A stretch of 56,698 nt of DNA from an uncultured Bacteroidales bacterium (GTDB taxonomy: Bacteria; Bacteroidota; Bacteroidia; Bacteroidales; UBA3824): assembly GCA_946409405.1 (NCBI GenBank), contig CAMJWL010000002.1:1-56698 (forward strand), in the 5' to 3' direction. This document shows positions 1-17,869 of this stretch, in pieces; positions within the stretch are counted from its first letter, which is position 1, and each line of letters begins with the position of its first letter. A model generated the notes under the pieces. That model was not told the origin of the DNA, searched no databases, and worked only from the letters and a program-made list of their open reading frames with translations. The position numbers and the translations under genes are program-made.

Positions 1-2346
1 GAACATTGAACCGCCTAACGCCATCTGCGGTATCATCAAGAGCGGTATCATAATGTAGATGGTGACCGCCGAATTGAACGCCGAAGATATATTGAGACCC
101 ATCATATTGGCAAATACAAACATCGAGAATAGCACAAGCCAGAACGAACCGTACATCTCCCATTCAAATTGCAGTATAGTATTGCCAACAAGCACGTACA
201 GGATGGCCTGTACCGCTGATATGAAAGTCAATATGACGACCTTTGCCACCAAGTAGCTCGACCGCGACAGATTGAGAAACTCTTCTCGCTTGAGTATCTT
301 GCGGTCGCGGAATATTTCCTCCGCCGACACCGTAAGTCCCAAGAACAGAGCCACGATGATACTCATAAAGATATACGGCACAACGTTCTCATTCTCGAAG
401 AAGAGGTAGCGTCCCTTGTTGGGATCCGTGTACCTAATCAGGAACGACAATATGAAGCCCAGCAACGGTGCCTCCAAAAGGTTGAGCACCACATATTGAG
501 TGTTGCTCACTTTGGACTTGACATCCCTCCTGAGGTATATCAGGAACTGATGAAGCCAATTGGGCACATGCAGATTTTTAGGCGGCTCGTTGGTAACGTC
601 GTCTATCTTCTCAGGCGTGACGTTCTTCCTGAAACGTTCCTCCCATACCTGCGGCGTCACCTTGCGCTCGTCCTTGAAATTACCGTATTCGTCCACCTTC
701 TGCGCCTCGATGATGTCGAAGATTACCTCCGGCGTGGAGTTACCACAGACAGGACACTCGCCCTCCTCGCTCTTTACCTGGTTGTCGGCTGTCTTGAAGT
801 AAGAAATACAGTCGATAGGATGCCCGTAATAGACCATATATCCTCCAGTATCGAGGATAATCATCTTGTCGAACATCTTGTAAATCTGCGACGACGGCTG
901 GTGGATAACCACAAAAATAAGTTTGCCTTTGAGGGTCAACTCCCTCAAAAGGTCCATAACATTCTCAGAGTCCCTTGACGACAAACCCGACGTAGGCTCG
1001 TCCACAAACAGGATGGAAGGCTCGCGGATAAGTTCGAGGGCTATATTGAGACGCTTGCGCTGACCGCCCGAAATCAACTTGTTGAGCGAGTTGCCCACTT
1101 TGAGGTCGCGGCGTTCATAGAGGCCGAGGCTCTTCAAGACGGAGTTTACCTTGGCGGTAATCTCGTCGTCATTCATGTCCTTGAAACAGAACTTCGCGCT
1201 GAAATAAAGGTTTTCAAAGACCGTCAACTCCTCTATCAGAAGGTCGTCCTGCGGGATGAGTCCTATGACACCTTCGAGCCTTTCCTTCTGCGTGTGGAGG
1301 TTGATGCCGTTGATAAGCACCTCGCCCTTCGACGGAGTAGTGATGCCCGAAAGCACGTTGAGCAACGTAGTTTTGCCCGCGCCCGACGCACCCATGATGC
1401 CCACAAGCCTGCCCTGGCACTCGGAGAAGCTGATGTTCCTCAGACCAATAGTACCGTTGGGGAACTTGAATTCGAGGTTGTTGCAGTTGAACGACAAGTT
1501 GGTAAAGGTCTTGTCTGCCTGGAACGTGGCTACCACGTCGCTATAATACACAGGCTTACCTTTGGAGAGTTTGAGCGTGGCACCCGGCGCAAACGAGTAA
1601 ATACGGTCGGCGAATATCGCCTGGCCGTTCAAGAACACGTCGTGCGTGCCGGTGTAGCGCATGAAGTAGAGTTCCTGCGTGGTAACTCGCATAATGAAGA
1701 TGTCGGAGTCGAGACCCTCGCATCGGATGGTCTTGGTGTTGACAAACGAATACTCATTGTCGCTGATTACCAAAATGTTTGGCGAATCAAACTTCATAGC
1801 ATCGTTGTTGACCACAAAATTTTCCGAATCCTTCAACACGTCCTGTGCGCCCTCCGTAATCGACGACTTTTCGGGATTGACATTGAATACCTCGCCCACG
1901 GTGTTGATGATGGCCATGCGCTGCTCCGTAAATTTCTTGCTGGTATTCACCAACTCAAACAGACGCACATACACCACTATCTTCTGCTGCTGGTTGATCT
2001 GCTTATTAATCTTCTTGCAGATACCGAGGATTTTGACGGACTCGCGCACCGAAGTAAGTTCCTTGTCCTTCTCCATCTTGGCACGCGCCTCCGGGTTGTT
2101 GGCGAGTTCCTTCTCGAGCTCGAGTTGTTTCTTGCGTTCACGCTCCTGCTTGCGCAGGGCTTTTTCGTCGAGGATAAGACCCACCTGCTTTTTGAAATCG
2201 AGCAACCACTCCTGAGCCGCCTCCACACCAAGTTGCTGTATGAGGAAACTCTCCACATACTGCAATTCCTTGTCCTCGATGCCGCCGTCCTGCTTGGCGG
2301 TGAGGGCAAACAACTGGATTAACGCTCTTAAAATCTCCTCACTCAT
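1..2346 (-). CDS. ABC transporter ATP-binding protein/permease, ABCG-like. Partial: the C-terminal membrane part runs off the window. Carries a ~300-aa N-terminal non-transporter extension.
   Basis: Absent from the ORF track because there is no stop inside the window. Reverse translation from ATG at 2346 reads MSEEILRALIQLFALTAKQDGGIEDKELQYVESF... Walker A is GIMGASGAGKTTLLNVLSG (~1355-1400). Signature plus Walker B is ISGGQRKRLNIALELIREPSILFVDEPTSGL (~990-1080). Hydrophobic ABC-2-type segments follow toward nt 1. Plus-strand ORFs 496-978 and 1294-2322 are antisense shadows. Confidence 0.9.
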   Translation of the reverse strand, partial: MSEEILRALIQLFALTAKQDGGIEDKELQYVESFLIQQLGVEAAQEWLLDFKKQVGLILDEKALRKQERERKKQLELEKELANNPEARAKMEKDKELTSVRESVKILGICKKINKQINQQQKIVVYVRLFELVNTSKKFTEQRMAIINTVGEVFNVNPEKSSITEGAQDVLKDSENFVVNNDAMKFDSPNILVISDNEYSFVNTKTIRCEGLDSDIFIMRVTTQELYFMRYTGTHDVFLNGQAIFADRIYSFAPGATLKLSKGKPVYYSDVVATFQADKTFTNLSFNCNNLEFKFPNGTIGLRNISFSECQGRLVGIMGASGAGKTTLLNVLSGITTPSKGEVLINGINLHTQKERLEGVIGLIPQDDLLIEELTVFENLYFSAKFCFKDMNDDEITAKVNSVLKSLGLYERRDLKVGNSLNKLISGGQRKRLNIALELIREPSILFVDEPTSGLSSRDSENVMDLLRELTLKGKLIFVVIHQPSSQIYKMFDKMIILDTGGYMVYYGHPIDCISYFKTADNQVKSEEGECPVCGNSTPEVIFDIIEAQKVDEYGNFKDERKVTPQVWEERFRKNVTPEKIDDVTNEPPKNLHVPNWLHQFLIYLRRDVKSKVSNTQYVVLNLLEAPLLGFILSFLIRYTDPNKGRYLFFENENVVPYIFMSIIVALFLGLTVSAEEIFRDRKILKREEFLNLSRSSYLVAKVVILTFISAVQAILYVLVGNTILQFEWEMYGSFWLVLFSMFVFANMMGLNISSAFNSAVTIYIMIPLLMIPQMALGGSMF

Positions 2347-2419
2347 GATGCTTGGTTTCTAATACTGGTTTGCTTACTATCAACGATTGATGCTGACTAT
2401 CTTTGTGTTACAAAAAAAA

Positions 2420-2800
2420 CTAAATCGAGTACGGAACCTGCTCAAAAGGCACGTCAACGATGTCGGAATACTCCTCGCCGGCCTCCTCCATGTCCTCGTC
2501 GTCGTCGGGGTAGTGCCACTTAACGAGTACGTCGTGTCCGTCGTTGTGGATGTCCTCGAGTTTGAGCAATACGTCGAGAAGCAACTTAGACGATGCCGTG
2601 TTGAAGTATTCGAGCTTGAAATTGAAGACGGTCTTGTCGAGGGGGTCGTTCTTGTACTCGTCAAGCCATTCGAGAATAGGCTTGTAGAACACAACGACAT
2701 CCTCGGGCAGCGAACGTCCCGAAATCTCGAAGATGTTGTTTTCCTTGTCCAAAGTAACTGTGGGGGTATCGTCTGTACCCTGTATTTTTATAACTGACAT
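2420..2800 (-). CDS. DUF1987 / SiaC-family small regulatory (phospho)protein
   Basis: 126 aa. FEISGRSLPEDVVVFYKPILEWLDEY...FKLEYFNTASSKLLLDVL fits the DUF1987 (SiaC) layout as I remember it, including an FNT-SS-type motif. Lies 12 nt downstream of the SiaB-like gene. Confidence 0.75.
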   Translation of the reverse strand: MSVIKIQGTDDTPTVTLDKENNIFEISGRSLPEDVVVFYKPILEWLDEYKNDPLDKTVFNFKLEYFNTASSKLLLDVLLKLEDIHNDGHDVLVKWHYPDDDEDMEEAGEEYSDIVDVPFEQVPYSI

Positions 2801-2812
2801 AATTATGTAGAT

Positions 2813-3391
2813 TTATTCTTTTATACGTGAAATAGTTGATGTTAAAACGAAGAACGAATTGACACTGTCAATCGTCAGGAAGCTGTATAGCAACTTCTGT
2901 CCGGTCTTACGAGCGATGTCGATAAAACCGAGTCCCGCGCCTCCACGGTCGGAAATGCTTCCTTCCCGCATCTGCTGCTTGTAGAGTTTGTTGAGTCCGT
3001 CCTTGTCTTGCTTATTGACGTTCTCGAGAATCGACCGCAACTTTTCGACGTTGGCGTTCTTGATGATGTTGCCGGTGGTGACGTTGTATTCCGTCGCCGC
3101 CTTCGACACCATAAAAATGCCCCTGCCGTCCTTCGCCGATTCGTTGGCATTACCTTCGGAGTGCTTGCTTATGTTCTGTAGGCATTCCACCATGACGTGG
3201 AACACCTTTTTCTGAACGGAGCTTGGGTCCTCCTCTCGCGCCATATTGGTCTCGGCGAGGGAGGTAAACGCCTTCGTTATCTGGTGCGTTATCTCTCCTT
3301 CGTAAGCCAAATTGATGTTGTTACGCTTCATCTTGACGTAGAAGTCATAAACAAAATCAAGCGACTCTTTATGTTCTTTTGTGTTCGCCAT
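2813..3391 (-). CDS. SiaB-family protein kinase (HATPase-like anti-sigma-kinase fold)
   Basis: 192 aa. C-terminal SISDRGGAGLGFIDIARKTG ATP-lid-like motif. Size and position between a PP2C and a DUF1987 gene match the SiaA-SiaB-SiaC order. Confidence 0.7.
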   Translation of the reverse strand: MANTKEHKESLDFVYDFYVKMKRNNINLAYEGEITHQITKAFTSLAETNMAREEDPSSVQKKVFHVMVECLQNISKHSEGNANESAKDGRGIFMVSKAATEYNVTTGNIIKNANVEKLRSILENVNKQDKDGLNKLYKQQMREGSISDRGGAGLGFIDIARKTGQKLLYSFLTIDSVNSFFVLTSTISRIKE

Positions 3392-3426
3392 AATATTATT
3401 CGTGTTGTATATTATGATACATTCTT

Positions 3427-6075
3427 TTAAAACTCTATACCAATGAGCAAGATGTCGTCCACCTGCTTGTAACTGCCCTTAAACTCCAGGAAGTCCTTCT
3501 CAAACAAATCCCTGTACTGCGGCATCGTGAGTTCCGGATTGTTCTCGATGAGTTCCTTGATGCGCCCAGGACGGTATTTGCGACCGTCTTCGCCGCCTAT
3601 CTGGTCGGGAAGACCGTCTGAGAAGAAGAAACATTTTTCACCGGGCTTGAAGTTGATTTCGTAGTCCTCAAACTTCTTCTCCTCCCTGCCTTTGCGCGGC
3701 GGCTTGCCACCGATGGCCTGCGCCGTGCCTTTGTACTGCAAGAGTTCGCGCTGCGAGTTGAGATAGTACAGAGGCCTGTGTGCGCCCGAAAAGTGAAGTA
3801 TGCCTTTCTCGAAGTTTATTTTACATAAAGCAATATCCATGCCATCCCTTGCCTCCTGTTCCTCGCTGTCTTGTTTTAATGTCTTGCGGACACCAAGATG
3901 GAGTTGGTCGAGCACCTGCCCCGCATGGAGCGCGTCGGCGTGGTCGGCTATGATATTGAGGTTGAAATATCCAATGAACGAGAGCAACGCGCCCGGCACA
4001 CCGTGGCCAGTACAATCGACCGCCGCAATATATACGTTGTCGTCTTTCTCGAAGAACCACGGGAAGTCGCCGCTTACCACGTCCCTCGGCCGGTAAAACA
4101 TGAAGAACTTGGGCAGACGTACCGTAATGGCGTCGAGACTCGGTATAATCGCCGACTGGATTCGCTGCGCGTAGTTGATGGACTCGGTGATAGACTTGTT
4201 CTTTTCCTCGATTTCCATCTCGATGCGCTTGCGCTCGGTGATGTCGTGCGCCACAAAGAGGACCGTTTCGAGTTCCTTCTCCTTGTTGAACTCCGGGATG
4301 GCGTTAAACTGGATGATCATGTCCTCGCCGTCTTCGCCCACATTCGGGAAGGTGGTCTCGGTGTCGAACATGCGCTGGTTTTGAACCACCTGATCCAAAG
4401 CGTCCTTGAAGAAGGCGCGGATTACGTCGTTGAGTTTTACCTCGTCTATCTGCTTGGATACAATCTGGTCTTTTTTGAGTCCCACAATCATCTGTCCCAC
4501 GGGGTTCACATAGAAGAACTTGCCGTCGGGACTCAGGCGCAGGATGGCGTCGAGAGAGTTCTCCGACAATGCCTGCATCTCACCAGACATGCGCTGCGCC
4601 TTCTCTGCAATCTTGCGCACGGTGATGTCGCGGGTGTTGAAGATAATGCCCTGTATTGCCGCATTGCTGAGGAGGTTGCGGCCTGTTGCCTCGAGCCACA
4701 GAGTCTCCGTATCCGACTTCTTGAACTGGTACTCGAATGTAACCGGCGTCTCGGGGTGAGCAAGCAACTGTTTGAACACTTCGTGGAACTTGTGACGGGA
4801 GTTTTCGTCGAACTTCTCGATGGCACTCTTGCCCACAATGTAATCAGGCTCGTAGCCCAAGATGCTCTTGGACGACGGGCTTTCGTATGTAACGAGGGCG
4901 TTTTCGTCGTAGATGGAGATGACCTCAGATGCGTTTTCGAGAAGGGCGTACTGACGTTTCTGACCACGCTCCACCTCGCGAATCTGAGCCTCCAATTTCT
5001 TGTTGGTGTCTTGAAGTTCGAGTTGTGCCTTCTGCATCGCCTCGGCGTTCTTGCGAAGTTCCTCCTCGTTTTTCTGCAACTGCTTGGTCATTTCCTGGGC
5101 GTCGCGGAGGAGTTTCTCTGTCTGGGTGTTCACCTTCAAGTTGAAGATGGTCTGCGCGATAATCTCGCTCACCTCCTTCACAAGGTTGAGGGTCTTGTTT
5201 GGCAGGTCGGGCAGCAAGGACGCAAACTCGATGACACCCTGCAACTTCTCGTCGCTGATGAGGGGCGAGAGCAACAGGGTCTGCGGCTTCTGGTCGCCAA
5301 GGATGCCAGAACTGATGGTTACATAGTCGGCGGGAATTTCCTTGCGGTAAATAATGTCGCGCTCGAAGGCAGCCTGTCCCACAAGCCCGACGCCTATCTG
5401 AAATTCCTGGGTAACGTATTTTTTGCGGTTGTAGGCATACGTGGCGATGTTGACGAGGGTCTTCTTGTCCTCGTCGTATAGGTAGAACGCGCCTTGCACC
5501 GCGTTGATAAATTCTATGATGTTGATGATGGTCTCGTATGCGAGGTCGTTGATGCTATTGCGCTGACGGAGGATGTCGCCCACAATTTCCTTGCCTTTTG
5601 CAATCCACGCTTGCTCCGCCTCACGCTGCGATGTCGCCACAAGGTTGTTTTTCATTATAAGCAACGAACTACCGAGGAGGTCGTTCTGGTCGATTTCGCT
5701 GTTGTCGAAGTAGAGGTCGCCTTCACCAATTCGCTTGGCGATCATGGAGTTTTTGCGGAAGATTTCGTTTTTCTCGTCGAGCATCTTCTCCAGTTCCTCG
5801 TTCTGACGGCGGTTGCGACGCGCAAAATAATTGAAAATAATTCCAATTACAATAGGCGCGAGGTCTATGATATAGAGCAACGGCGAGCGATCGTGGATGT
5901 AAAGGAGTTTGGATAACGAAAACTGGATGTGCTTCATCTGAAACTCCGCAAGTATCGCCACGACAGGGAACAGCATACCGATAGCAATGCCTACCATGGT
6001 GTAAATCAGCACCATGTGGGGATTGCTTGCAATCCTGTCTTCTTTGATTGATATGTCAGTTTCCTGTGTTGCCAT
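3427..6075 (-). CDS. Membrane-anchored GAF-PAS-PAS PP2C (SpoIIE-type) Ser/Thr phosphatase, SiaA-like
   Basis: 882 aa. Two N-terminal TM helices; a GAF module (QGAFYLYDEDKK...GVGLVGQAAFERD...SSGILGDQKPQTLLLSPL); a coiled coil; two PAS-like blocks. C-terminal SGDFPWF..AAVDCTGHGVPGALLS..DGMDIAL..FSDGLPDQ motifs are typical of SpoIIE/PP2C. Confidence 0.85.
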   Translation of the reverse strand: MATQETDISIKEDRIASNPHMVLIYTMVGIAIGMLFPVVAILAEFQMKHIQFSLSKLLYIHDRSPLLYIIDLAPIVIGIIFNYFARRNRRQNEELEKMLDEKNEIFRKNSMIAKRIGEGDLYFDNSEIDQNDLLGSSLLIMKNNLVATSQREAEQAWIAKGKEIVGDILRQRNSINDLAYETIINIIEFINAVQGAFYLYDEDKKTLVNIATYAYNRKKYVTQEFQIGVGLVGQAAFERDIIYRKEIPADYVTISSGILGDQKPQTLLLSPLISDEKLQGVIEFASLLPDLPNKTLNLVKEVSEIIAQTIFNLKVNTQTEKLLRDAQEMTKQLQKNEEELRKNAEAMQKAQLELQDTNKKLEAQIREVERGQKRQYALLENASEVISIYDENALVTYESPSSKSILGYEPDYIVGKSAIEKFDENSRHKFHEVFKQLLAHPETPVTFEYQFKKSDTETLWLEATGRNLLSNAAIQGIIFNTRDITVRKIAEKAQRMSGEMQALSENSLDAILRLSPDGKFFYVNPVGQMIVGLKKDQIVSKQIDEVKLNDVIRAFFKDALDQVVQNQRMFDTETTFPNVGEDGEDMIIQFNAIPEFNKEKELETVLFVAHDITERKRIEMEIEEKNKSITESINYAQRIQSAIIPSLDAITVRLPKFFMFYRPRDVVSGDFPWFFEKDDNVYIAAVDCTGHGVPGALLSFIGYFNLNIIADHADALHAGQVLDQLHLGVRKTLKQDSEEQEARDGMDIALCKINFEKGILHFSGAHRPLYYLNSQRELLQYKGTAQAIGGKPPRKGREEKKFEDYEINFKPGEKCFFFSDGLPDQIGGEDGRKYRPGRIKELIENNPELTMPQYRDLFEKDFLEFKGSYKQVDDILLIGIEF

Positions 6076-6144
6076 TTTAGTCGTTAAAATCGGTTGCTAA
6101 ATTACAGAATTTTACACGGAAAATAAAATTTTCGGCGATTTTTT

Positions 6145-8724
6145 TTATTTGTCCCAACTTTTCAGCCAATTTCTGTACCTCTGGTCCAATGACGAAAGCG
6201 TTCCATCACTCTCCGCAAGGCTGTTAACTTTCTCAATCTCAGTGAGTTTTGATTTAAGATCGCTTTCACTGTGCTGAGCGGTCTTGAGCCTGTCGTGCAA
6301 ATCTTGATTTTGCGCCTTCATTATCTCCACCTGCTTCATCGCCTGCTCCTCTATCTCCTTATGTACGGTGATGTCGAATGCGGTGTAAAGCACTTTGAAC
6401 ACCTTGCCGTCGGTATCCCTTACCGGCGTGTATTGGTTGATAAGCCAAATGTCGTTGCCAGTGAGTTTGGACTTACGTTTTACAGTCATCTGGTGCATAT
6501 TACCTTCGCAAACATTTTGCCACAATGCCTTAAATTCCATGATTTCTTCGTCAGGAATGAAGGTCAAAATGTTTTTGCCCTTGGTCTGCTCGTAGTCGTA
6601 CCCCATGGTCTTGATGTGTTTTGCGTTGGCAAACAGCAAGTTGCCTTCCACGGAATACTCCGCCCGCATCATGGTCTCGTCTATGGCGGTAAGCACCGAG
6701 GTCATCTCGATACGGTTTTTTGCCATGCTTTCCTGCGTGGCTTGCAGCATTTCGGCGCGCTCCTGCTCCACGGCGAGGAGTTGCTTGTTTTTTTCCTCGA
6801 TGTTTTTCTGCTCGGTGATGTCGTTGGCTATGTAGAGGACGCGCACCACATTGCTCTTCTGGTCAAAAATCGGCGTGTACTGCGAGATAAGCCAGATATT
6901 GTCGCCATTTTTGCTCTTCTGGTTGACAATCTTCTGGTACGACTGTCCGGCGCAGATGTTTTGCCATACAATGTCAAAATTGTCCAAGTACTCATCGGAA
7001 AGGATACTCCTGATATTTCTGCCGATAAGCTCGTCTTTGCGGTATCCAAGCGCAGAGAGGTATTTCTGGTTGGCGGATTCAAACTTACCTTCGGGATCCA
7101 ACTCGGCTTTGAGAAGGGTCTCATCGACGGCGGAAAGAATACCCGACATCTCCGCCTCGCGTCGCTGCGATTCGTCGCGGGCGGTGGTCATCTCCGCCAT
7201 CGCCTTGTGGAGTTCCTGCTCGCGGACGGCAAGTTCGTCTGACTTTTTCTGCGATTCCTGGAGGAGTTCGGCGGTACGGGCGTTGTTGCGCAACGAGGAG
7301 AGCGTGGAGGCTATGGAGTCGCCAAGTTTTTCCACAAACTGGATTTCGTGCGGTTTCAAAAGGTTGAGCGACGCCAATTCTATAACGCCAAGTATGGTGT
7401 CTTCCGATTTGAGCGGCACCATCAATAGGCATTTTGGACGCGAGTCTCCAAGACCCGATTCTATCGCCATGTAGTCTGGCGGAACGTCTGTAATATATAA
7501 GGTGTTCTTCTCCAACGCGCACACGCCCACAAGACCGTCGCCGAGGGGGATGCGCTTGGTAAGGAATTTTTTGCGGTCGTATGCAAATGCCGACAGCATT
7601 TCGAGGTAGATGTGGTTTGCGTCGGAATCGTCCAATATAAACAGACCGCCCTGACTCGCATTTATATAATGTACGAGGTTTTTGATTACTTCGTCGGAAA
7701 GGGTGGTGATGTTTTCGTTGAAATGGCGCATGATGTCGCCAAATTTAGCCAGACCCTGCGTAGTCCAGTTGCGCTGCTCGTCTTCGAGACGGCGTTTTTT
7801 CTCTTCGCTCTGCGTGGTTGACAGGCGGTTGCGGAGTTCGATAAGGCTCTTTGCCATGGAACCTTCCACAGCCTCCACGCCTACTTCCGAATCGTATTCG
7901 CCCTGAGCAATCTTGTGCGAAAACTCGGTAAGTCGCTTGAAGTTGGATGCGGTTTCGTTGATGCGGTGATTAAGTAGGCCAAACTCAGTCTTGTCTTCGT
8001 CGAGCCTGTAATCCGGCACGATGCCGCGCATGAGCAATGATATGAAATTGTCTGCCTTGATGAAGCCCGCCTTCATGTAGCGGAACACAAAGAGACCTAT
8101 CATCATTATCAGCAATATCAATGGCACCGACAATGCCGCTACCACAATGCCGTGGTGCTGTATCTCGTCCCTTATCTTCTGGTCGCCAGCAATGAGATTG
8201 TTGCGGTGCGCCATGTACATCTGATTGAGGGTCTTGCGTATCTGTTCAAACGCGCTTATCTCCTTGACACCGAGCAACTCACGCGCCGACTCCACTCGCC
8301 CGTTGATGATAAGGCGCATGATGTCTTTGTTGACGTTCTGGTAGATCACAAACTCGTTTTTGAATTTGTCTAAAATCCTGAGTTCTTCCGCCGACTGCAA
8401 TGTGGCTTCGTAGTCTTTGAGGCGCACTTCGTAGAATTGGTTGAACTTATTGTGGTGCCTCTGGATGGTAACAACGTCGGTCTCGCTCTCGATGATGGCA
8501 TGATTCTGCACCACGAGAGTATAGATGTCTTCGGAAAGGGCGTACAACGGGTATATACTCGTAGCCTGATGCCCGGTGAACGCCTCCACATCGCTCCTTA
8601 TCTTGCCGACCGAGTACAACGAGTATATGCAATAAAATAAGGCATAAGCCGCTACCATCGTAAACAACAGTATCAACTTATTCCGAAAGTCCATTTTGTC
8701 AAATATTTGGTTCACAGTTCCCAT
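6145..8724 (-). CDS. MCP-like sensor: 4-helix-bundle N-domain, TM, HAMP, GAF, 2x PAS. No recognisable output domain.
   Basis: 859 aa. The N-terminal ~190 aa lie between two TM helices and have a 4HB_MCP-like heptad character. A HAMP-like linker follows (TEFGLLNHRINETASNF), then GAF (QGGLFILDDSD...GDGLVGVCALEKN...ESGLGDSRPKCLLMVPL). Two PAS blocks are each preceded by a Glu/Gln-rich coiled coil. No MA, kinase or GGDEF motif seen. Confidence 0.8.
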   Translation of the reverse strand: MGTVNQIFDKMDFRNKLILLFTMVAAYALFYCIYSLYSVGKIRSDVEAFTGHQATSIYPLYALSEDIYTLVVQNHAIIESETDVVTIQRHHNKFNQFYEVRLKDYEATLQSAEELRILDKFKNEFVIYQNVNKDIMRLIINGRVESARELLGVKEISAFEQIRKTLNQMYMAHRNNLIAGDQKIRDEIQHHGIVVAALSVPLILLIMMIGLFVFRYMKAGFIKADNFISLLMRGIVPDYRLDEDKTEFGLLNHRINETASNFKRLTEFSHKIAQGEYDSEVGVEAVEGSMAKSLIELRNRLSTTQSEEKKRRLEDEQRNWTTQGLAKFGDIMRHFNENITTLSDEVIKNLVHYINASQGGLFILDDSDANHIYLEMLSAFAYDRKKFLTKRIPLGDGLVGVCALEKNTLYITDVPPDYMAIESGLGDSRPKCLLMVPLKSEDTILGVIELASLNLLKPHEIQFVEKLGDSIASTLSSLRNNARTAELLQESQKKSDELAVREQELHKAMAEMTTARDESQRREAEMSGILSAVDETLLKAELDPEGKFESANQKYLSALGYRKDELIGRNIRSILSDEYLDNFDIVWQNICAGQSYQKIVNQKSKNGDNIWLISQYTPIFDQKSNVVRVLYIANDITEQKNIEEKNKQLLAVEQERAEMLQATQESMAKNRIEMTSVLTAIDETMMRAEYSVEGNLLFANAKHIKTMGYDYEQTKGKNILTFIPDEEIMEFKALWQNVCEGNMHQMTVKRKSKLTGNDIWLINQYTPVRDTDGKVFKVLYTAFDITVHKEIEEQAMKQVEIMKAQNQDLHDRLKTAQHSESDLKSKLTEIEKVNSLAESDGTLSSLDQRYRNWLKSWDK

Positions 8725-8756: not shown

Positions 8757-8764
8757 CAAATTTA
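8757..8764 (-). promoter_or_regulatory. Candidate Bacteroidetes -7 box (TAAATTTG on minus strand) for the sensor/partner-switch operon
   Basis: Plus-strand CAAATTTA is the reverse complement of TAnnTTTG. Lies 33 nt upstream of ATG 8724. Confidence 0.45.
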
Positions 8765-8923: not shown

Positions 8924-8968
8924 AACAACCCCGCAACATCGGGGGCGTGCGCCTTGATGTGCGGGGGG
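8924..8968. repeat. REP-like hairpin, third copy of the AACAACCCCGCACATC...GATGTGCGGGG element
   Basis: aacaaccccgcaacatc-gggggcgtgcgcctt-gatgtgcgggg. The arms match the hairpins at 26896-26930 and 47687-47726 but the loop is different and larger. Confidence 0.6.
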
Positions 8969-9074
8969 ATAGGAACACTTGCACTGCGCCTGCAATTCGG
9001 GGCCGAATATAATAAAATTCGCATCCACCCAAAAAATCCCCCCTTTTTTATTTTGCAATCCAAAAAAATAATCA

Positions 9075-9082: not shown

Positions 9083-9104
9083 TATTGTTGTTTCAACATT
9101 GAAA

Positions 9105-9950
9105 ATGGAACTTAGCGAACAAGACATACAGAAGGTGCAAGACACCATCAGGAACGTTTCGTCATACGACTTCTCCGACTATTCCTACAACAGTTTTTGC
9201 CGCAGGATAGAGAAGATACTGCTCGATTATGGCGTGTCGCTCGACGTGTTGCTCAGGGACATCCAGGGCAACTACAACTTCATGGAAAAAGTGGTGCGCG
9301 ACATCACCGTAAACACCACAGAACTATTCCGCGACACCGAAGCATGGCTCAAAATACGCACCCTCCTGGAAACCAAATACGCCGACAAAGAATCGCTATA
9401 CATCTGGCACGCCGGATGCTCGTCGGGGCAGGAAGTATATTCAATGATGATAATGCTCTGCGAAATCGGCATGATAGACAAAGCCTCCATATACGCCACC
9501 GACATCAACGAAAACATGCTCCGTACCGCAATGTCGGGGCAATACAAATACCACGAAGTGCAAGACTACATCGGCAACTTCGACAAAGTGTTCAACCCCA
9601 AAGTACATTCGGAGGCAGTGCCATACGTCGATATGCGCAAATACATAGAAGTAAACAAACAGAAAGACTACGTAAAAATGGAGCGCAGCCTCGTGGAAAA
9701 GCCGCTCTTCTTCAAGCACGACCTCGTGTCGGGCGAACCCATCATCGCCCGCAAACTCGACATAATCCTCTGCCGCAACGTCCTCATATATTTCAACCAC
9801 AACCTGCAAAACAAAGTCCTCAAATTTTTCTACGACAACCTCGCCGACGACGGATGCCTCATCATAGGCCGCCACGAAGGCATGATAGGACACGTGGCTT
9901 CCCTCTACGACAAGAAAGGAACAATCTACTACAAGAGGAGTATAATATAG
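9105..9950 (+). CDS. cheR: CheR-family protein-glutamate O-methyltransferase (stand-alone)
   Basis: The track ORF starts at TTG 9099; ATG 9105 (MELSEQD..) is more likely. The N-terminal helical domain (FSDYSYNSFCRRIEKIL) plus AdoMet-MTase motifs (LYIWHAGCSSGQEVYSMMIML, DIILCRNVLIYF) are typical of CheR. Confidence 0.85.
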   Translation: MELSEQDIQKVQDTIRNVSSYDFSDYSYNSFCRRIEKILLDYGVSLDVLLRDIQGNYNFMEKVVRDITVNTTELFRDTEAWLKIRTLLETKYADKESLYIWHAGCSSGQEVYSMMIMLCEIGMIDKASIYATDINENMLRTAMSGQYKYHEVQDYIGNFDKVFNPKVHSEAVPYVDMRKYIEVNKQKDYVKMERSLVEKPLFFKHDLVSGEPIIARKLDIILCRNVLIYFNHNLQNKVLKFFYDNLADDGCLIIGRHEGMIGHVASLYDKKGTIYYKRSII

Positions 9951-10041: not shown

Positions 10042-10869
10042 ATGAAAACAATCAGACACATACTCGCCACGGCAGCGGCGGCCGCGTCATTGACGGCGGC
10101 GCAAGCCCAGGTGTCCGCCGACTTCACCGTCTCGCCAGACAAGGCTTGCACGGGCGAAGCCATTACTATCACAATCAAAAACTCTTCCGGAGAATACAAG
10201 ATTGCCAACGTAACCGACTTCGGCGACGGCATAGACACATACGGCAAAGACCTAAAACATATCTACGAAAAGCCAGGCACATACACAATCTCAGTAAGGC
10301 TCCTGCTCAAAGACGACACTTGGACGCAGGCCACCACAAAGACCATCACAATAGGCGAAACGCCCGAACTCACCCTCGAAGACAACGCCGACGCCGCGCT
10401 CATCACCGCCACCACGTCCACAGGAGCGTCGCTCGAATGGATGTGCAACGGCAGCAAAATCAGCAACACAGAAAATACACTCTATTACCTCGAAGGAGGC
10501 ACGTACACCGTTACCGCCTCCAACAACGGATGTGCCGCCACACAGACCTTGAAGGTTACGTACCAAAAACAGGCCGCCAACGACGACACTTATATTAAAG
10601 TAGCCAACAACGTAATCACGCCAGGCAACAAGGACGGTGTCAACGACGTACTATTCATCGAGGACGTGGGCAACTACACCTCGCCATGCTCCGTCAAAAT
10701 ATTCGACAAGAGAGGCCGCATGGTATATTCAAACAACAATTACACCAACACCGACGGGTTCCAGGGGCTCGACGACAACGGCAACGAACTTTTTGCCGGC
10801 ACTTATTACTATGTTATCAAAAGCCAGGGCAAAAAAGGCTGCACGGGCTTTGTCGATTTAATCAGATAA
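10042..10869 (+). CDS. Secreted PKD-domain protein with a T9SS type-B (gliding-motility-associated) C-terminal sorting domain
   Basis: Signal peptide MKTIRHILATAAAAASLTAAQAQ. PKD-like FTVSPDKACTGEAITI..FGDG..HIYEKPGTYTISV. C-terminal NNVITPGNKDGVNDVLFIE..VKIFDKRGRMVYS..FAGTYYYVI..GFVDLIR fits the TIGR04131-type CTD. Confidence 0.85.
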   Translation: MKTIRHILATAAAAASLTAAQAQVSADFTVSPDKACTGEAITITIKNSSGEYKIANVTDFGDGIDTYGKDLKHIYEKPGTYTISVRLLLKDDTWTQATTKTITIGETPELTLEDNADAALITATTSTGASLEWMCNGSKISNTENTLYYLEGGTYTVTASNNGCAATQTLKVTYQKQAANDDTYIKVANNVITPGNKDGVNDVLFIEDVGNYTSPCSVKIFDKRGRMVYSNNNYTNTDGFQGLDDNGNELFAGTYYYVIKSQGKKGCTGFVDLIR

Positions 10870-10882
10870 AACACTTACGATC

Positions 10883-12433
10883 ATGACAAGGAAAATAATC
10901 ACAGCCGCCGCGCTCCTGCTCACCGTCCACACCGCCATGGCGCAGGAGTTGACGCCCGGACAGACCTATATGAACCGCTTTGCCGTAGCACCTGCCTTTG
11001 CGGGCTTCAACGGCAACGACGAAGGATTCCTCGGATACCGCGCCACCATGACGGGCATCGACGGCGCGCCTACACTACTCCGCGCCAACGTCAACGGCAA
11101 CCTCAAAGGCACAATGGGCTACGGCGTGGACATCGCAAACGAAAAGGCGGGCAACTTCAACAACACCATAGCCGCCCTCACATACGCATACCACGTCAGA
11201 CTGAGCAACGACATGAACCTCAGTTTTGCCCTCACGCCCACCATAGTAAGGTCGGCATACGACCTCGCCAAAGCCAAGACATACAGCGCACAGGTGGACC
11301 CCGTGTTCCAAAACGAGGCAGGACTCGCCGGCACGGGCTTCGACGCAGGATTCTCGGTAATGTTCAACGTGCAAGGGCTATACGTGAGCATCAACGCGCC
11401 GCGTCTTATATGCCCCGACCTCAAATTCCAGAACGGCATCGTAAACACCGACCGCGTTATCAACGCAAACGTATCGTATGCCATCGAAGCCGACAAATGG
11501 GAGATAGAACCAGGCGCGGCTGTATGCTACGGCATCAAGGGCGGACTCGACTGGCGGGCATTCGCAACCTTCAAATACGACCGCCGTGCATGGCTGCAAT
11601 TGTCATACGCCTCGCAAAAATGGATGGGCATAGGAGCGGGGTTTGCCGCCACCAACAGGATTGTATTGTGCTACCAGTACGAAGTGGGCATGTCTGACAT
11701 CGCCAAAACCTGCAACGGCAACCACGAAGTTACAGTGGGATTTCTGTTGAACAAGGCCAAGAAATTACAGAAGCCCACCATCTTCATCGACGACAAGCCC
11801 GACTCCAAGCCCGACTCCAAAGCCGAAAGCGGACTTGCCAAGAAGTTGCAAGAAGAAATAAAGGCCCGCACCAACGAAATCAAGCGTCTCGAAGGCATTA
11901 TAGAAGACTGCTGCGCCAACAACAACCCGTCGTCGGACGTCAACAGCCCCAAGCCCTCGGAAGACCCCAACCAGATTACCGACCCAAGCGAGCCAAACCA
12001 GCAGATTGCCGACAACAACGAAATAGAGCAGCCCTCCGACGACAGCGAAGTGGCGCAGCCCCGCGACCCGCACAAAGTGGAATGGCTCACCCCCACCGAA
12101 CTCATCAACGTAAGGTTTGCAACGGGAACCGCCACCATGCTCAAAGCGTCCATGTCGGATCTCGACGCCTTCGCGCTCAAGGTAAAACACGCCAAAAACA
12201 ACGACCGCGACATCCTCATCATCGCCTATACCAACGACCCAACGGCATACGGCAAGCAGATGTCTGAACGCCGCGCCATGGCCATCAAAAAATACCTCAT
12301 CTCCAAAGGCGTACCCGCCAACAGGCTCATTGCAACTGGCATGAGGCTACGCAACATAGCCGAAGACCCCGACGGACGCTACGAAGACAATAGGATAATG
12401 GTAGGCCTCGAAGTTAAGCAGAGAGACAAGTAA
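10883..12433 (+). CDS. PorP/SprF-family T9SS outer-membrane protein fused to a C-terminal OmpA-like peptidoglycan-binding domain
   Basis: N-terminal ~290 aa: signal peptide, then MNRFAVAPAFAGF..., with PorP/SprF beta-barrel character. An acidic/Pro-rich linker follows (KPDSKPDSK...SEDPNQITDPSEPNQQ). The C-terminus RFATGTATM..ILIIAYTND...SERRAMAIKKYLISKGVPANRL is OmpA_C-like. Confidence 0.8.
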   Translation: MTRKIITAAALLLTVHTAMAQELTPGQTYMNRFAVAPAFAGFNGNDEGFLGYRATMTGIDGAPTLLRANVNGNLKGTMGYGVDIANEKAGNFNNTIAALTYAYHVRLSNDMNLSFALTPTIVRSAYDLAKAKTYSAQVDPVFQNEAGLAGTGFDAGFSVMFNVQGLYVSINAPRLICPDLKFQNGIVNTDRVINANVSYAIEADKWEIEPGAAVCYGIKGGLDWRAFATFKYDRRAWLQLSYASQKWMGIGAGFAATNRIVLCYQYEVGMSDIAKTCNGNHEVTVGFLLNKAKKLQKPTIFIDDKPDSKPDSKAESGLAKKLQEEIKARTNEIKRLEGIIEDCCANNNPSSDVNSPKPSEDPNQITDPSEPNQQIADNNEIEQPSDDSEVAQPRDPHKVEWLTPTELINVRFATGTATMLKASMSDLDAFALKVKHAKNNDRDILIIAYTNDPTAYGKQMSERRAMAIKKYLISKGVPANRLIATGMRLRNIAEDPDGRYEDNRIMVGLEVKQRDK

Positions 12434-12458
12434 TTAACCCCAAAAAACGACACCCAAA

Positions 12459-12944
12459 ATGACCAGGCAAATACTCAAATACCTGATGGCAGGCATATTG
12501 ACCGCCGCCACCACGGGCATTGCGGCGGCGCAGTCCATCAGCCTCGGACACACCACTCCGGCGGCAAGCACTGCGCACGCGGGCGGGCTGTCTTACACTT
12601 ACTCGATAGGGCGGATAGCAAGGATGGTAACTACAACCATCCCCGCCGACTCTCGCGACGGCAATACCAAGGCGGCGTCAAGCACCAAGGCAATAGCCGC
12701 CACCGCATACCCCAACCCATGCACCACCCTACTCCGCGTCAAGGCCGACGAGCCAATATCCGGCACCAACGCCAAGATACAGATAATAGACAGCAAAGGA
12801 GGCGTGGCTGCCACAATGAAAACATCGTCTGCCAGCGACGACGGCGAAATCTCAATAGACATGTCGCACTTCGCACAAGGCAAATACATAATCAAGATAA
12901 CCAACGCTAACGGCACATACACCGCCACAGCAATCAAATTCTGA
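12459..12944 (+). CDS. Small secreted protein consisting almost only of a T9SS type-A C-terminal sorting domain
   Basis: 161 aa. Signal peptide, a ~60-aa low-complexity segment, then AYPNPCTTLLRVKADEPISG..IQIIDSKGG..FAQGKYIIKITNANGTYTATAIKF (Por_Secre_tail pattern). Confidence 0.75.
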   Translation: MTRQILKYLMAGILTAATTGIAAAQSISLGHTTPAASTAHAGGLSYTYSIGRIARMVTTTIPADSRDGNTKAASSTKAIAATAYPNPCTTLLRVKADEPISGTNAKIQIIDSKGGVAATMKTSSASDDGEISIDMSHFAQGKYIIKITNANGTYTATAIKF

Positions 12945-12950
12945 CATATC

Positions 12951-14906: not shown

Positions 14907-14928
14907 ACCACACCTTATAATAATATAG

Positions 14929-15336
14929 ATGGACAACAACTATACAAACAACAACAATAACAACAACACCAATCTGGTACTCGGCATACTATCCGCAGTA
15001 TTCGGTGCGCTGTCGCTGTTCATATTCTGCATCCCGTGGCTCACGTTGATACTTGCGGCTGCGGGACTTGCATGCGGCATCATTGCGTTGATACGCATCA
15101 AGAAGGAAGGCGGACAGTTGACACTGCCAATCATCGGCACCGCAATATCGGGCGTGGCCTTTATTGTGGCAACGGTAATGGTGGTAACGTTTCATATAAC
15201 CATCAACGAACTCGACAACAGATTCGAAGAAATGGAGGGCTTATACAATATCATACGCGATTCTATCGACCAATGGGATTCCAATTTTGACAACCAAACC
15301 CTCCCCGAACCAGACTCGACGTTTTATATTGAGTGA
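14929..15336 (+). CDS. Small membrane protein (DUF4190-like), poly-Asn N-terminus
   Basis: 135 aa. MDNNYTNNNNNNNTN followed by three hydrophobic helices. Last gene of the plus-strand cluster. Its 3' end overlaps the rsmG 3' end convergently by 13 nt. Confidence 0.6.
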   Translation: MDNNYTNNNNNNNTNLVLGILSAVFGALSLFIFCIPWLTLILAAAGLACGIIALIRIKKEGGQLTLPIIGTAISGVAFIVATVMVVTFHITINELDNRFEEMEGLYNIIRDSIDQWDSNFDNQTLPEPDSTFYIE

Positions 15337-15953: not shown

Positions 15954-16638
15954 TTATTGTTAGATTGTCGCCTTGTAGAAAATTCTGCTCCCCCTTCTTG
16001 CGGTTCAAGAACATTGCCTCCAAGAGTTCGCGGGAACGGTATATGCGCGCCTTTACAGTGCCCATGGGAAGACCAAGTTCCTCCGCGATTTCCACGTAAG
16101 ATTTATCCTTAAAAAATCGCATTACGATGATTTCGCGGTAATCCTTGTGCAGATGCGCCACAAACTGTTCGAGGTAATCCACCCTTTGAGTGTGAATCAT
16201 GCGTTCCTCCGGGTCGTCGGAATTTTCTACAAGTTCTGGCACACTGGGTATTGTAGCCATGCCATCATCAGTTTCTGCTTCTTCGTCGATAGAAACCAAC
16301 TTCAGCCTCTTGCTACGGATAAAATCTATCACCTTGTTGGAGGCAATCTTAAACAACCACGTACTAAACGCCCGCTCCGGCTTGTAATTAGCAAGATTGC
16401 GGAACGCCTTGCCAAAGGAATCCATCGTGATGTCCTCCGCGTCGTGTACATTCTTCACCATACGGCACACCATGTGAAACATAGGTTCCTGATACCTCTC
16501 CAACAACTGCGCGTAAGCCTGTTGGTTGCCCTCCCTTGCCTCGTTAACAAGACGGAGGTCTTCCTTGGCCTTCTCGGACAACTCAAACCCATGTTCGTTG
16601 ACGTCTATTATATCCTGTGGTTCGTTTTTTACTTCCAT
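15916..16638 (-). CDS. RNA polymerase sigma-70 family (ECF-like) sigma factor
   Basis: 240 aa. Region 2 (AYAQLLERYQEPMFHMVCRMV..AEDITMDSF..FSTWLFKIASNKVIDFIR), an acidic linker, and region 4 (YREIIVMRFFKDKSYVEIAEELGLPMGTVKARIYRSR). The start overlaps the GT2 stop by 10 nt. The stop overlaps the rsmG start by 38 nt. Confidence 0.85.
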   Translation of the reverse strand: MEVKNEPQDIIDVNEHGFELSEKAKEDLRLVNEAREGNQQAYAQLLERYQEPMFHMVCRMVKNVHDAEDITMDSFGKAFRNLANYKPERAFSTWLFKIASNKVIDFIRSKRLKLVSIDEEAETDDGMATIPSVPELVENSDDPEERMIHTQRVDYLEQFVAHLHKDYREIIVMRFFKDKSYVEIAEELGLPMGTVKARIYRSRELLEAMFLNRKKGEQNFLQGDNLTINETDGEGEKIFS

Positions 16639-17777: not shown

Positions 17778-17798
17778 AATAATTTTCACTATCAGACG

Positions 17799-17806
17799 CA
17801 AAATTA
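17799..17806 (-). promoter_or_regulatory. Candidate -7 box (TAATTTTG on minus strand) for the GT2-sigma-rsmG operon
   Basis: Plus-strand CAAAATTA, 22 nt upstream of ATG 17777. Confidence 0.45.
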
Positions 17807-17861
17807 CAATCTTTTTCGTGATTTGAAAAAAAAATTGTTTAGTTATATGAATTTTTTGCTG

Positions 17862-17869
17862 TAACTTTG
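17862..17869 (+). promoter_or_regulatory. Candidate -7 box TAACTTTG immediately upstream of tgt
   Basis: TAnnTTTG match only 5 nt before ATG 17874. This implies either a leaderless or very short-leader mRNA, or a chance match. Confidence 0.3.

Follow-up and report, generated by a model that had tools for sequence, protein, structure and literature searches.

The window, a stretch of 56,698 nucleotides of DNA from an uncultured Bacteroidales bacterium that was analysed as a whole, begins with five co-directional genes on the minus strand (Table 1). In this order they encode a sensor, a PP2C phosphatase, a SiaB-family kinase, a SiaC/DUF1987 protein and an ABCG-type exporter. When recomputed from the coordinates, the gaps between them were 69, 35, 12 and 73 nt, the same values as given in a preliminary description of this DNA, which had also named the genes as co-directional. 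No minus-strand terminator-like site was detected in the four intergenic gaps, and the five genes are presumably transcribed together. The sequence TAAATTTG upstream of the sensor gene was kept in four of four aligned relatives; the pattern that it fits is the -7 promoter consensus of Bacteroidetes. For the leader of 374 nt Rfam gave no credible match, and the idea that it contains an sRNA or a riboswitch was rejected. A role in anti-phage defence was likewise discarded, since the similarity found by PADLOC was that of a generic ABC-ATPase only.

Table 1. Positions of the genes, domains and sites discussed in the text
Feature	Position	Strand	Remarks
ABCG-type half-transporter, first 782 of ~1111 aa	1..2346	-	runs off window edge
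NBD of the exporter	778..1443	-	Walker A GASGAGKT, signature SGGQRKR, Walker B ILFVDE, H-loop VIHQPS, all intact
FHA-like beta-sandwich, ~residues 186-270	1537..1791	-	8 predicted strands, pLDDT >90
TerB-like all-helical domain, ~residues 1-160	1867..2346	-	AF2 helices at residues 3-161
SiaC-like phospho-switch protein, 126 aa (DUF1987, STAS-related)	2420..2800	-	PF09345, 142 bits
Thr68 codon, predicted phospho-acceptor	2597..2599	-	loop YFNTASSK
SiaB-family GHKL-type Ser/Thr kinase, 192 aa	2813..3391	-	DUF6272; NF038262
SiaA-like phosphatase, 882 aa	3427..6075	-	TM helices, GAF_2, two PAS, PP2C/SpoIIE
Membrane sensor, 859 aa	6145..8724	-	4HB_MCP_1, GAF_2, two PAS (Pfam)
TAAATTTG, putative -7 promoter element	8757..8764	-	32 nt 5' of sensor ATG; fits TAnnTTTG
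CheR-type methyltransferase	9099..9950	+	CheR 8.1e-36; divergent from sensor

Signalling proteins of the cluster

The TM helices of the phosphatase are N-terminal, and its C-terminal PP2C/SpoIIE domain (residues 678-881, E = 4.5e-15, 56.5 bits at a cut-off of 25) contains the metal-binding motifs GD, DCTGHG and SDG. The SiaA model NF038263 matched the C-terminus (1.2e-45) with its positions 398-655, which represent the phosphatase part only, and the score was 156 at an equivalog cut-off of 700. The kinase, with the N-box ECLQN and the ATP-lid GGAGLG, reached 172.5 bits with the NCBIfam model NF038262 (SiaB_fam_kinase, cut-off 85) and 79 bits with the SiaB equivalog model (cut-off 225). Since both proteins stay below the cut-offs of the SiaA/SiaB/SiaC equivalog models, they were regarded as family members and not as orthologues. 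The domain DUF6272 was mentioned nowhere in the literature searched.

Residues 1-119 of the SiaC-like protein could be aligned without gaps to the P. aeruginosa SiaC structures 6KKO and 6K4F. In this alignment LEYFNTASSK pairs with LLYLNTSSIK and T68 falls on T68, which is the mapped phosphosite of P. aeruginosa SiaC (PMC7647112). The loop from Y65 to K72, including N67, T68 and S70, was invariant in all 31 diverse SiaC-like sequences that were compared, and the whole protein is 95-100% identical across many Bacteroidales contigs. Judged from the sequence, the SiaC-like protein would be phosphorylated at the predicted site Thr68.

The preliminary description had proposed a SiaA/B/C-type triad lacking a diguanylate cyclase, and this proved correct: the family models PP2C, SiaB_fam and SiaC were matched, and Pfam scans of all large ORFs revealed no GGDEF domain in the window, in agreement with the earlier statement that no such gene is present. 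The sole GG[DE]EF string (~31.5-32.9 kb) lies in an ORF antisense to a SusE-like gene and without a Pfam match, and was put down to chance. Related DNA, in total 2.47 Mb from 168 loci, had no ORF with this motif. SiaABCD of P. aeruginosa and this cluster share the three kinds of signalling protein and their gene order, and the N67-T68 phospho-loop is conserved. The two systems differ in the output, which is the diguanylate cyclase SiaD in P. aeruginosa and an ABCG-type exporter here, and in the sensor modules, which are GAF/PAS here and of another kind in SiaA.

The sensor is built from a periplasmic 4HB_MCP_1 domain (E = 3.1e-11), a TM helix, a GAF domain (GAF_2, 7e-13), two PAS domains (PAS_9, 1.4e-20) and a C-terminal coiled coil, and contains no recognisable output domain. 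Of the domains that had been assigned to it before, 4HB, GAF and both PAS were recovered, whereas HAMP had no Pfam match at E ≤ 0.01.

The exporter and its N-terminal module

In near-identical relatives the exporter comprises 1111 aa, arranged as an N-terminal regulatory module, an NBD and an ABC-2 TMD. Pfam assigned ABC_tran to residues 302-453 (1.5e-32) and ABC2_membrane from residue 600 on (9.2e-18); the match to TIGR00955 (1.1e-72) remained under the cut-off of that model. Residues 304-771 align to ABCG5 (PDB), covering both NBD and TMD. With an NBD that is N-terminal to the ABC-2 membrane domain and with intact ATPase motifs, the protein was classified as ABCG-type. The best sequence relatives of its NBD-TMD core are ABCG2, ABCG1, ABCG5/G8 and Pdr5, and, as in the ABCG half-transporters, the last TM helix of this exporter is preceded by a large loop. 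Unlike the eukaryotic-type ABCG proteins, it has a TerB/FHA-like head of ~300 residues, a bacterial context and a dedicated lipoprotein and secreted protein.

The first ~300 aa were modelled by AF2 with good scores (pLDDT 89.8, pTM 0.80) as TerB-like helices packed on a small beta-sandwich; this model and its Foldseek matches agree with the TerB-like helical and beta-rich stretches that had been noticed in the sequence. The module was always N-terminal and directly before the NBD, in ABC proteins of ~1000-1100 aa (335 clusters, E ≤ 1e-30). Its TerB-like domain has the invariant N-terminus MSEEIL.AL and a KQDG motif. The exporter of the window reached 20.0 bits with TerB PF05099 (cut-off 24.4) over residues 8-45 only, the homologue at locus L034 29.8 bits over profile positions 3-116 of 118, and PF05099 is among the precomputed annotations of most of 120 exporter homologues.

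For the beta-sandwich, all top 50 Foldseek matches in the PDB were FHA domains, with weak E-values that were all at least 0.013; the FHA fold is one that mediates protein interactions. The best of them (E = 0.013) had a probability of 1.0, a target-normalised TM of 0.50 and an rmsd of 2.8 over ~83 columns. Pfam FHA (PF00498) matched none of 78 aligned beta-domains even at E ≤ 10, a profile of these 78 domains found no FHA chain among the PDB sequences, and their alignment contained no Arg, Ser or His that was invariant or at least 90% conserved. As to the FHA step of the preliminary description, the Foldseek matches suggest a likeness in fold, and the reading of phosphothreonine is not supported: lacking both an FHA sequence match and any invariant Arg, Ser or His, the sandwich is unlikely to form a canonical pocket for phosphothreonine.

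A related arrangement is known from the ABC exporter Rv1747 of Mycobacterium tuberculosis, which has two N-terminal FHA domains and is regulated through them by the kinase PknF and by Rv2623, a binding protein (PMC3138270, PMC5549992). Both proteins are NBD-then-TMD ABC-2 exporters with adjoining Ser/Thr signalling genes and a module before the ATPase that has the FHA fold in Rv1747 and is FHA-like in the model of the window's exporter, and the regulation of Rv1747 by phosphorylation and a small binding protein forms a parallel to the system proposed here (PMC3138270, PMC5549992). In contrast to the canonical FHA domains of Rv1747, the exporter of the window has one degenerate FHA-like domain without the pThr-binding residues, fused to the TerB-like domain. 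Further, the kinase of Rv1747 is Hanks-type, whereas no Pkinase (Hanks-type) match was found in this cluster, which has a GHKL partner-switch kinase and, as a separate protein, a STAS-like phosphoprotein.

Conservation of the cluster in Bacteroidota

The gene-neighbourhood census that had been suggested in the preliminary description showed that the triad is syntenic with this ABC family. PP2C, SiaB and SiaC were encoded directly upstream of the exporter and on the same strand in 79 of 80 species-representative genomes, these being the best-scoring 80 of at least 580 genome relatives of the exporter. The order triad-then-exporter is therefore found in at least 79 Bacteroidota species, and its recurrence in nearly all genomes of the census is far beyond chance. 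From the SiaC stop to the ABC start there were 11-199 nt, with 42 nt as the median. With SiaB-SiaC pairs taken as the starting point, the best 120 matches listed contained this cluster type only. In total the exporter family comprises hundreds of protein clusters from Bacteroidales, Marinilabiliales-like and Cytophagales-like lineages, rumen and gut MAGs included.

In the Cytophagales-like subfamily of exporters the N-terminal module is just 36-38% identical. Both loci examined (L086 and L088) had the order SiaB-SiaC-ABC; no PP2C was adjacent in L086, and in L088 a PP2C was present together with a different (dCache) sensor. The link between triad and exporter has thus survived sensor swapping. 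At one locus, the single MAG contig L068, PP2C and SiaB were found without SiaC, and SiaB was separated from the ABC gene by 30 nt, too short a distance to hold SiaC.

A metagenome census covered the best-scoring 80 of at least 486 relatives. In a sister clade of the exporter the whole N-terminal module is kept, including the invariant start MSEEILKAL, and neither the triad nor CheR nor CheB was detected nearby in 80 metagenomic loci, many of them on contigs with little upstream DNA. Since this clade has the module without the triad, the module does not serve solely for receiving SiaC, and it must have a triad-independent role unless the genomes of the sister clade encode the triad elsewhere.

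Several genes that are absent from the preliminary description accompany the five: CheR (two copies), CheB and GAF genes upstream, and the genes of a lipoprotein and a secreted protein downstream. CheR is a conserved neighbour, which in most relatives lies on the same strand and inside the cluster, and the relatives' clusters normally hold two upstream CheR genes, a REC-less CheB (185 aa in L034) and extra GAF proteins. Of the CheR/CheB pair only CheR lies in the window, whose clade has lost CheB. The attachment of CheR/CheB genes in most relatives is a further difference from SiaABCD. Downstream, the exporter is always accompanied by genes for a conserved lipoprotein of ~300 aa and a secreted protein of ~146 aa. 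The 1978 homologues of the lipoprotein are all annotated as 'hypothetical' and none has a Pfam domain. A PDB search with its AF2 model (pLDDT 79) found nothing similar in structure (best E = 1.3) and gave no clue to a substrate.

Possible control of the exporter by the partner switch

To our knowledge, the diguanylate cyclase SiaD is the only characterised output of any SiaC/DUF1987 switch. As the triad stands directly before the exporter in at least 79 species, the switch described here probably controls export and not c-di-GMP synthesis, and we consider a functional coupling of triad and exporter to be highly probable. The exporter would be another candidate output for this type of switch, one that is widely conserved and differs greatly from SiaD. 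The cluster itself was not found in our literature search (CheR/CheB/PP2C in Bacteroidetes; TerB/ABC/partner-switching).

SiaC of P. aeruginosa binds the helical stalk of SiaD with its N67/T68/S69 loop and with helices alpha2 and alpha3, and once T68 is phosphorylated this binding is lost (PMC8457831). It was proposed that DUF1987 proteins in general modulate adjacently encoded proteins (PMC8457831), and both systems are likely to follow one logic, in which a small STAS-like protein controls an adjacent gene product by its phospho-state. Applied to this cluster, membrane and cytoplasmic sensors (4HB_MCP/GAF/PAS), with the CheR/CheB methylation pair beside them in most relatives, would decide how far the PP2C phosphatase or the SiaB-family kinase prevails, which in turn would fix the phospho-state of Thr68. 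As in Pseudomonas, unphosphorylated SiaC would bind a helical element of the output protein and phosphorylation would block this. In place of a diguanylate cyclase, the output would be the downstream ABCG-type half-transporter with its TerB-like and FHA-like module before the ATPase. Binding of SiaC to this module may change ATPase activity or dimer competence and so switch the export of a putative envelope substrate, in which the exporter probably works with the lipoprotein and the secreted protein.

We regard it as an evenly balanced proposition that the exporter is controlled by the phospho-state of SiaC, with the N-terminal module as the probable site of action; direct binding of SiaC to the module falls slightly short of that. 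If the reading is true, partner switches are able to gate transport post-translationally, and the TerB/FHA-like head of this large ABC family, so far uncharacterised, gains a role. In 76 of 77 pairs the conservation of SiaC exceeded that of the exporter head (medians 73% and 52%), as would suit a hub protein that serves several partners.

Two other readings have to be weighed, each of which appears unlikely. In the first, the SiaB-like kinase holds the N-terminal module, as RsbW holds sigma-B, or phosphorylates it, and unphosphorylated SiaC, as the antagonist, only removes the kinase from it. SiaB is indeed a GHKL kinase of the RsbW/SpoIIAB-like kind, SiaC resembles STAS proteins, L068 retains SiaB next to the ABC gene in the absence of SiaC, and nearly invariant Ser/Thr residues are found in the module, for example in the LTSVKDSV block. 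However, L068 is one MAG contig, SiaC is the component that adjoins the exporter in nearly all genomes of the census and is the most conserved one, and in the sole characterised SiaABC system it is SiaC and not SiaB that binds the output (PMC8457831). It is presumably SiaC rather than SiaB that contacts the exporter.

According to the second reading, genes of the cluster are merely co-expressed: the triad would have its target elsewhere, be it a sigma factor, an enzyme encoded at another locus or, by feedback, the CheR/CheB-sensor proteins, with exporter, lipoprotein and secreted protein as operon passengers. The sister clade speaks for this, as the trio of exporter, lipoprotein and small protein works there as a unit without the triad, and the module retained in it does not have to be a receptor for SiaC; moreover, the sensor lacks an output domain and several other candidate partners are encoded in the cluster. 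Against it, the adjacency held across two exporter subfamilies, varied sensors and variants with and without CheB, and the spacing between SiaC and ABC stays tight. No other conserved candidate output (GGDEF, sigma factor or HTH) was seen in the L034 cluster scanned with Pfam or among the Pfam domains listed for the neighbourhoods of L001-L004 and L088, and the 168 loci were free of the GG[DE]EF motif.

A third reading, along the lines of the preliminary description, in which the FHA-like domain reads phospho-Thr68 and phosphorylated SiaC is the active ligand, draws on the modelled fold of residues ~186-270 and on the precedent of Rv1747, but is very improbable, as is any recognition through a phosphothreonine-reading FHA pocket, given the missing residues and sequence matches, the presence of 8 predicted strands only, the existence of pocket-less FHA-like domains such as EssC among the Foldseek matches, and the fact that output binding by Pseudomonas SiaC is abolished, not created, by phosphorylation.

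The switches RsbU/RsbV/RsbW, SpoIIE/SpoIIAA/SpoIIAB and HsbR/HsbA-HsbD are likewise composed of a PP2C phosphatase, a kinase of the GHKL type and a phosphoprotein that is STAS-like. They act on a DGC or a sigma factor, whereas a sigma factor is not conserved in this cluster, and their antagonist is a canonical STAS protein in place of DUF1987.

With regard to the input, the cluster resembles chemotaxis modules in having CheR in the window, and two CheR and the CheB methylesterase in most relatives. It differs from them in that CheB is receiver-less and that CheA, CheW, CheY and an MCP signalling domain were absent from the scanned clusters. More tentatively than for the exporter as output, we propose that sensors adapted by CheR/CheB, without CheA/CheW/CheY, feed into the Ser/Thr partner switch, and that SiaC gates the ABCG-type exporter via its TerB/pseudo-FHA head; the exporter gated in this way would be an envelope, possibly lipid, exporter. 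If true, this route is one not described before in Bacteroidota, in which chemotaxis-style adaptation is coupled to transport and not to motility or transcription, and it would provide a function for orphan CheR/CheB genes in Bacteroidota where clusters carry no CheA/CheW. The sensor ends in RYRNWLKSWDK, and this C-terminus was considered as a CheR tether. The idea was set aside, as the motif is W-x-x-x-[FW] and not an xWxxF pentapeptide, and is weakened further by its presence in relatives without CheR within 10 kb. The sensor motif Y-x-x-W-L-K-S-[WF] is kept in CheB-less relatives.

Genes of the cassette and the surrounding cluster

The cassette consists of five co-directional genes, and intergenic distances calculated from the gene coordinates gave the same values as in the preliminary description (69, 35, 12 and 73 nt). 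A HAMP domain that had been assigned to the sensor was not detected with Pfam or NCBIfam models. The C-terminal part of the phosphatase matches the SiaA model (NCBIfam, 1.2e-45), and the kinase passes the SiaB-family model (NCBIfam, 172.5 bits against a cut-off of 85). Since the PP2C protein, the kinase and the SiaC-like protein all score below the strict NCBI SiaA/SiaB/SiaC equivalog cut-offs, they are, judged by sequence, family members and not orthologues. Inspection of the translations showed that the PP2C motifs GD, DCTGHG and SDG, the kinase motifs ECLQN and GGAGLG, and the Walker A, Walker B, signature and H-loop of the ABC protein are intact. In nearly identical metagenome-assembled contigs of Bacteroidales, the ABC protein is 1111 aa long. 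Its transporter core is ABCG-like (TIGR00955, 1.1e-72), with Pdr5/Cdr1, ABCG2/G1 and ABCG5 as the best sequence relatives in the PDB, and the ABCG5 alignment spans both NBD and TMD.

Features of the window, with positions and domain content
Feature	Position	Strand	Remarks
ABC protein, first 782 residues	start 2346, past window edge	minus	ABC_tran from residue 302, ABC2_membrane from 600
Charged insertion in TerB-like domain	2049-2178		ABC residues ~57-99
SiaC-like protein, 126 aa	2800..2420	minus	PF09345 SiaC, 142 bits
Kinase, 192 aa	3391..2813	minus	DUF6272
PP2C protein, 882 aa	6075..3427	minus	GAF, two PAS, SpoIIE/PP2C
Sensor, 859 aa	8724..6145	minus	Pfam: 4HB_MCP_1, GAF, two PAS; no output domain
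Sensor C-terminal motif	6145-6180		RYRNWLKSWDK
Candidate promoter TAAATTTG	8764..8757	minus	32 nt upstream of sensor ATG
G+C-rich insertion	~8925-9020		~90 nt, sensor-CheR intergenic
CheR	9099-9950		divergent
Type IX secretion genes	10042-14906		beside CheR
788-aa ORF	16629-19004	minus	GT2 domain at residues 463-687 only
PD-(D/E)XK (Rpn-type) transposase-like gene	19120-20112
Giant surface protein, 1973 aa	20897-26818		Flg_new_2, CUB
Polysaccharide utilisation locus	29282-37764	minus
Giant surface protein, 1637 aa	47781-52694		GLUG motif

The five genes would form one transcript, and no minus-strand terminator-like hairpin was found in the four intergenic gaps. The -7 promoter consensus of Bacteroidetes is TAnnTTTG, which TAAATTTG matches; this candidate promoter is conserved in four relatives. 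The sensor-CheR intergenic region, for which Rfam gave no match, also carries a G+C-rich insertion with ggccccgaattgcaggcgcagtgc and cgcccccgatgttgcgggg that close relatives lack in leaders that can otherwise be aligned, and a nearby block, AGGCACGTTTTTTGATTTTTT, is conserved in all four relatives.

To place the cassette among its relatives, one genome per GTDB species was scanned with the exporter head (residues ~1-300), which yielded at least 580 relatives, and the best 80 were kept; the metagenome census was likewise restricted to the best 80 of several hundred. The 80 species genomes are mostly Bacteroidales, Salinivirgaceae, Marinilabiliaceae, Rikenellaceae-labelled and Draconibacterium-labelled MAGs with 43-94% head identity. 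In 79 of these 80 best-scoring loci, SiaC, SiaB and a PP2C domain lie directly upstream of the exporter on the same strand (six-frame phmmer with the proteins of the window), which bears out the proposed synteny of triad and ABC family; a median of 42 nt (range 11-199) lies between the SiaC stop and the start of the ABC gene.

The cassette is part of a larger cluster. In most loci the upstream order is CheR, GAF-PAS sensor, second CheR, CheB (a 185-aa methylesterase without receiver domain), a 260-aa GAF protein and then PP2C. In the clade of the window (loci L001-L010 and L021), CheB, the second CheR and the small GAF protein have been lost; this clade keeps a single CheR and has a 4HB_MCP sensor instead. 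CheA, CheW and MCP signalling domains were not found in any scanned cluster protein. On the other side, every locus with enough sequence has, 3' of the ABC gene and co-directional with it, genes for a lipoprotein of ~300 aa and a secreted protein of ~146-158 aa. The lipoprotein (L001, a close relative, region 13841-15238, just past the left edge of the window) was modelled as all-alpha with a beta-hairpin (pLDDT 79), and its ~158-aa partner is Cys-rich. The lipoprotein gave no PDB structural match, no Pfam family and no hint of the exporter substrate.

In CheB-less clades, the C-terminus of the sensor is formed by a conserved aromatic motif, Y-x-x-W-L-K-S-[W/F] (loci L006-L009, L012, L015, L017, L021, L023 and L073). 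It superficially resembles the CheR-tethering NWETF pentapeptide of MCPs, with different spacing, and is also present where no CheR lies within 10 kb.

The N-terminal module of the exporter

A word-indexed search with residues 1-300 of the exporter detected 248 homologues, most of which are annotated as TerB plus ABC_tran. The N-terminus MSEEIL.AL and a KQDG motif are invariant. When a head profile was searched against 1.84 billion cluster representatives, 335 clusters were found at E<=1e-30, and in every full-length match the head occupies residues 1 to ~305 of a ~990-1160-aa protein; because of this constant position, it is a dedicated N-terminal module of this ABC family. The TerB match of the window protein (20 bits) lies below the Pfam cut-off of 24.4, and a homologue (locus L034) passes with 29.8 bits over the whole TerB profile. 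Within the TerB-like domain, the clade of the window carries an insertion of ~30 highly charged residues, which contains DEKALRKQERERKKQLELEKELANNPEARAKMEKDKE, is predicted to form a helical hairpin and is missing in most relatives.

An AlphaFold2 model of the head (51 sequences; pLDDT 89.8, pTM 0.80) has helices over residues 3-179 followed by eight strands over 191-260, and all top 50 Foldseek matches in the PDB were FHA domains, including CEP170, MEK1, Rad53, KIF1A and the pseudo-FHA of EssC. These matches reach a probability of 1.0, but are weak by E-value (>=0.013) and align ~83 columns. At the sequence level, a search with an alignment of 78 beta-domain sequences found no FHA chains in the PDB, and none of the 78 gave a Pfam FHA match at a threshold as loose as E<=10. 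Canonical FHA domains build their phosphothreonine pocket from Arg, Ser and His, and these residue types are absent from the invariant and nearly invariant columns of the alignment. Because Foldseek matched FHA domains, yet nothing FHA-like was found in the sequence, we predict an FHA-like fold without the canonical pocket.

A SiaC-type switch and its probable coupling to an exporter

Alignment of the SiaC-like protein with SiaC of P. aeruginosa (PDB 6KKO/6K4F) needs no gaps and puts LEYFNTASSK over LLYLNTSSIK, in which T68 is the mapped phosphosite (PMC7647112). Y65-K72 are invariant across 31 diverse relatives, and SiaC is better conserved than the exporter head (median identity to the window 73% vs 52%; SiaC higher in 76/77 pairs). 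As described before, a GGDEF gene is missing: Pfam scans detected neither a GGDEF domain nor CheB in any large ORF of the 56.7-kb window. The one GG[DE]EF string belongs to an ORF without Pfam match on the strand opposite a SusE-like gene, and in 168 related loci, which together span 2.47 Mb, no ORF contains the motif.

When it is not phosphorylated, SiaC of P. aeruginosa grips SiaD by its helical stalk, using the N67/T68/S69 loop together with helices alpha2 and alpha3; phosphorylation of T68 prevents this, and DUF1987 proteins in general were suggested to regulate adjacent proteins (PMC8457831). The most economical model, transferred from this SiaABCD system, is that sensors would tune PP2C against the kinase, that the T68 state of SiaC would decide its binding to the helical TerB-like/FHA-like head just before the NBD, and that bound SiaC would alter, in either direction, the competence of the half-transporter to hydrolyse ATP or to dimerise. 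Functional coupling of triad and exporter we consider quite likely; direct binding of SiaC to the head is a possibility that falls just short of even chances.

Exceptional loci bear on these readings. As a rival to SiaC binding, SiaB may contact the exporter, following the classical polarity. Locus L068 (6711-10001), a species-representative genome, has a TPR-PP2C and SiaB, and with a gap of only 30 nt between SiaB and the ABC gene, it has no SiaC gene there; this locus could serve as a natural test of which protein touches the exporter. The triad and the exporter might also be merely co-expressed. The SiaB-SiaC-ABC order recurs in a second, Cytophagales/Cyclobacteriaceae-like exporter subfamily (36-38% identical), one locus of which has its PP2C fused to a dCache-HAMP-GAF-PAS sensor, while L086 has no adjacent PP2C. 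As SiaB-SiaC-ABC was kept beside a dCache-type sensor, the triad-exporter link has outlived a sensor replacement. A third subfamily (N-terminus MSEEILKALMELFALIV; Bacteroidales/Bacteroidetes-labelled environmental MAGs), sampled by two look-ups and the metagenome scan, had no SiaC, SiaB, PP2C, CheR or CheB within reach in any of 80 loci, many on contigs that are short upstream of the gene; ABC gene, lipoprotein and small protein are kept in all loci with enough DNA. Since the full head is strongly conserved there (80% mean column identity, 10-sequence alignment), it has a role that does not need an adjacent triad. Either the triad sits elsewhere in these genomes, or the regulatory head came first and the switch was added to it. 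Reading of phosphothreonine by the head, as first proposed, would accord with the FHA-like fold and conflict with the absent pocket residue types, and is highly improbable.

An LPG_synthase_TM-like (MprF flippase-like) membrane protein gene occurs in 45 third-subfamily loci, directly upstream in L087, a member of this subfamily. A DUF6427 gene was found in 48 triad-less loci (among L085, L087 and L089-L168) and in 23 triad-bearing ones, convergent just downstream in L087. These neighbours faintly hint at a lipid as substrate.

A literature search found no description of this cluster, no mention of DUF6272 and scarcely any of DUF1987. Each part is of a known kind (partner switch, ABCG-type exporter, FHA-like and TerB domains, CheR/CheB), and the combination appears to be undescribed. 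The nearest counterparts are SiaABCD and Rv1747. SiaABCD has the same SiaABC-type switch, whereas here an exporter takes the place of SiaD. Rv1747 of M. tuberculosis is an ABC-2 exporter controlled via N-terminal FHA domains, phosphorylation and a binding protein (PMC3138270, PMC5549992), and in the present cluster a partner switch replaces the Hanks kinase of that similar regulated exporter.

Other genes of the window

The type IX secretion run encodes a PKD/CHU_C cargo protein, a PorP/SprF-OmpA fusion, a Por_Secre_tail protein and a 651-aa protein with a Peptidase_S74 chaperone domain; its first three genes adjoin the cluster in the close relatives L001-L004 only. The 788-aa ORF is over-extended at its 5' end, because it overlaps a 376-aa ORF on the plus strand that clearly encodes a queuine tRNA-ribosyltransferase (TGT, 8.5e-154). 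Rpn-type transposase-like genes also occur downstream in L001-L004, with several copies whose positions vary between relatives that are collinear in other respects, and mark a rearrangement-prone spot. The polysaccharide utilisation locus comprises a SusC-like TonB receptor, SusD-like and SusE/F-like proteins and a GH53 endo-galactanase, and presumably targets galactan. Two genes for giant surface proteins lie on either side of it.
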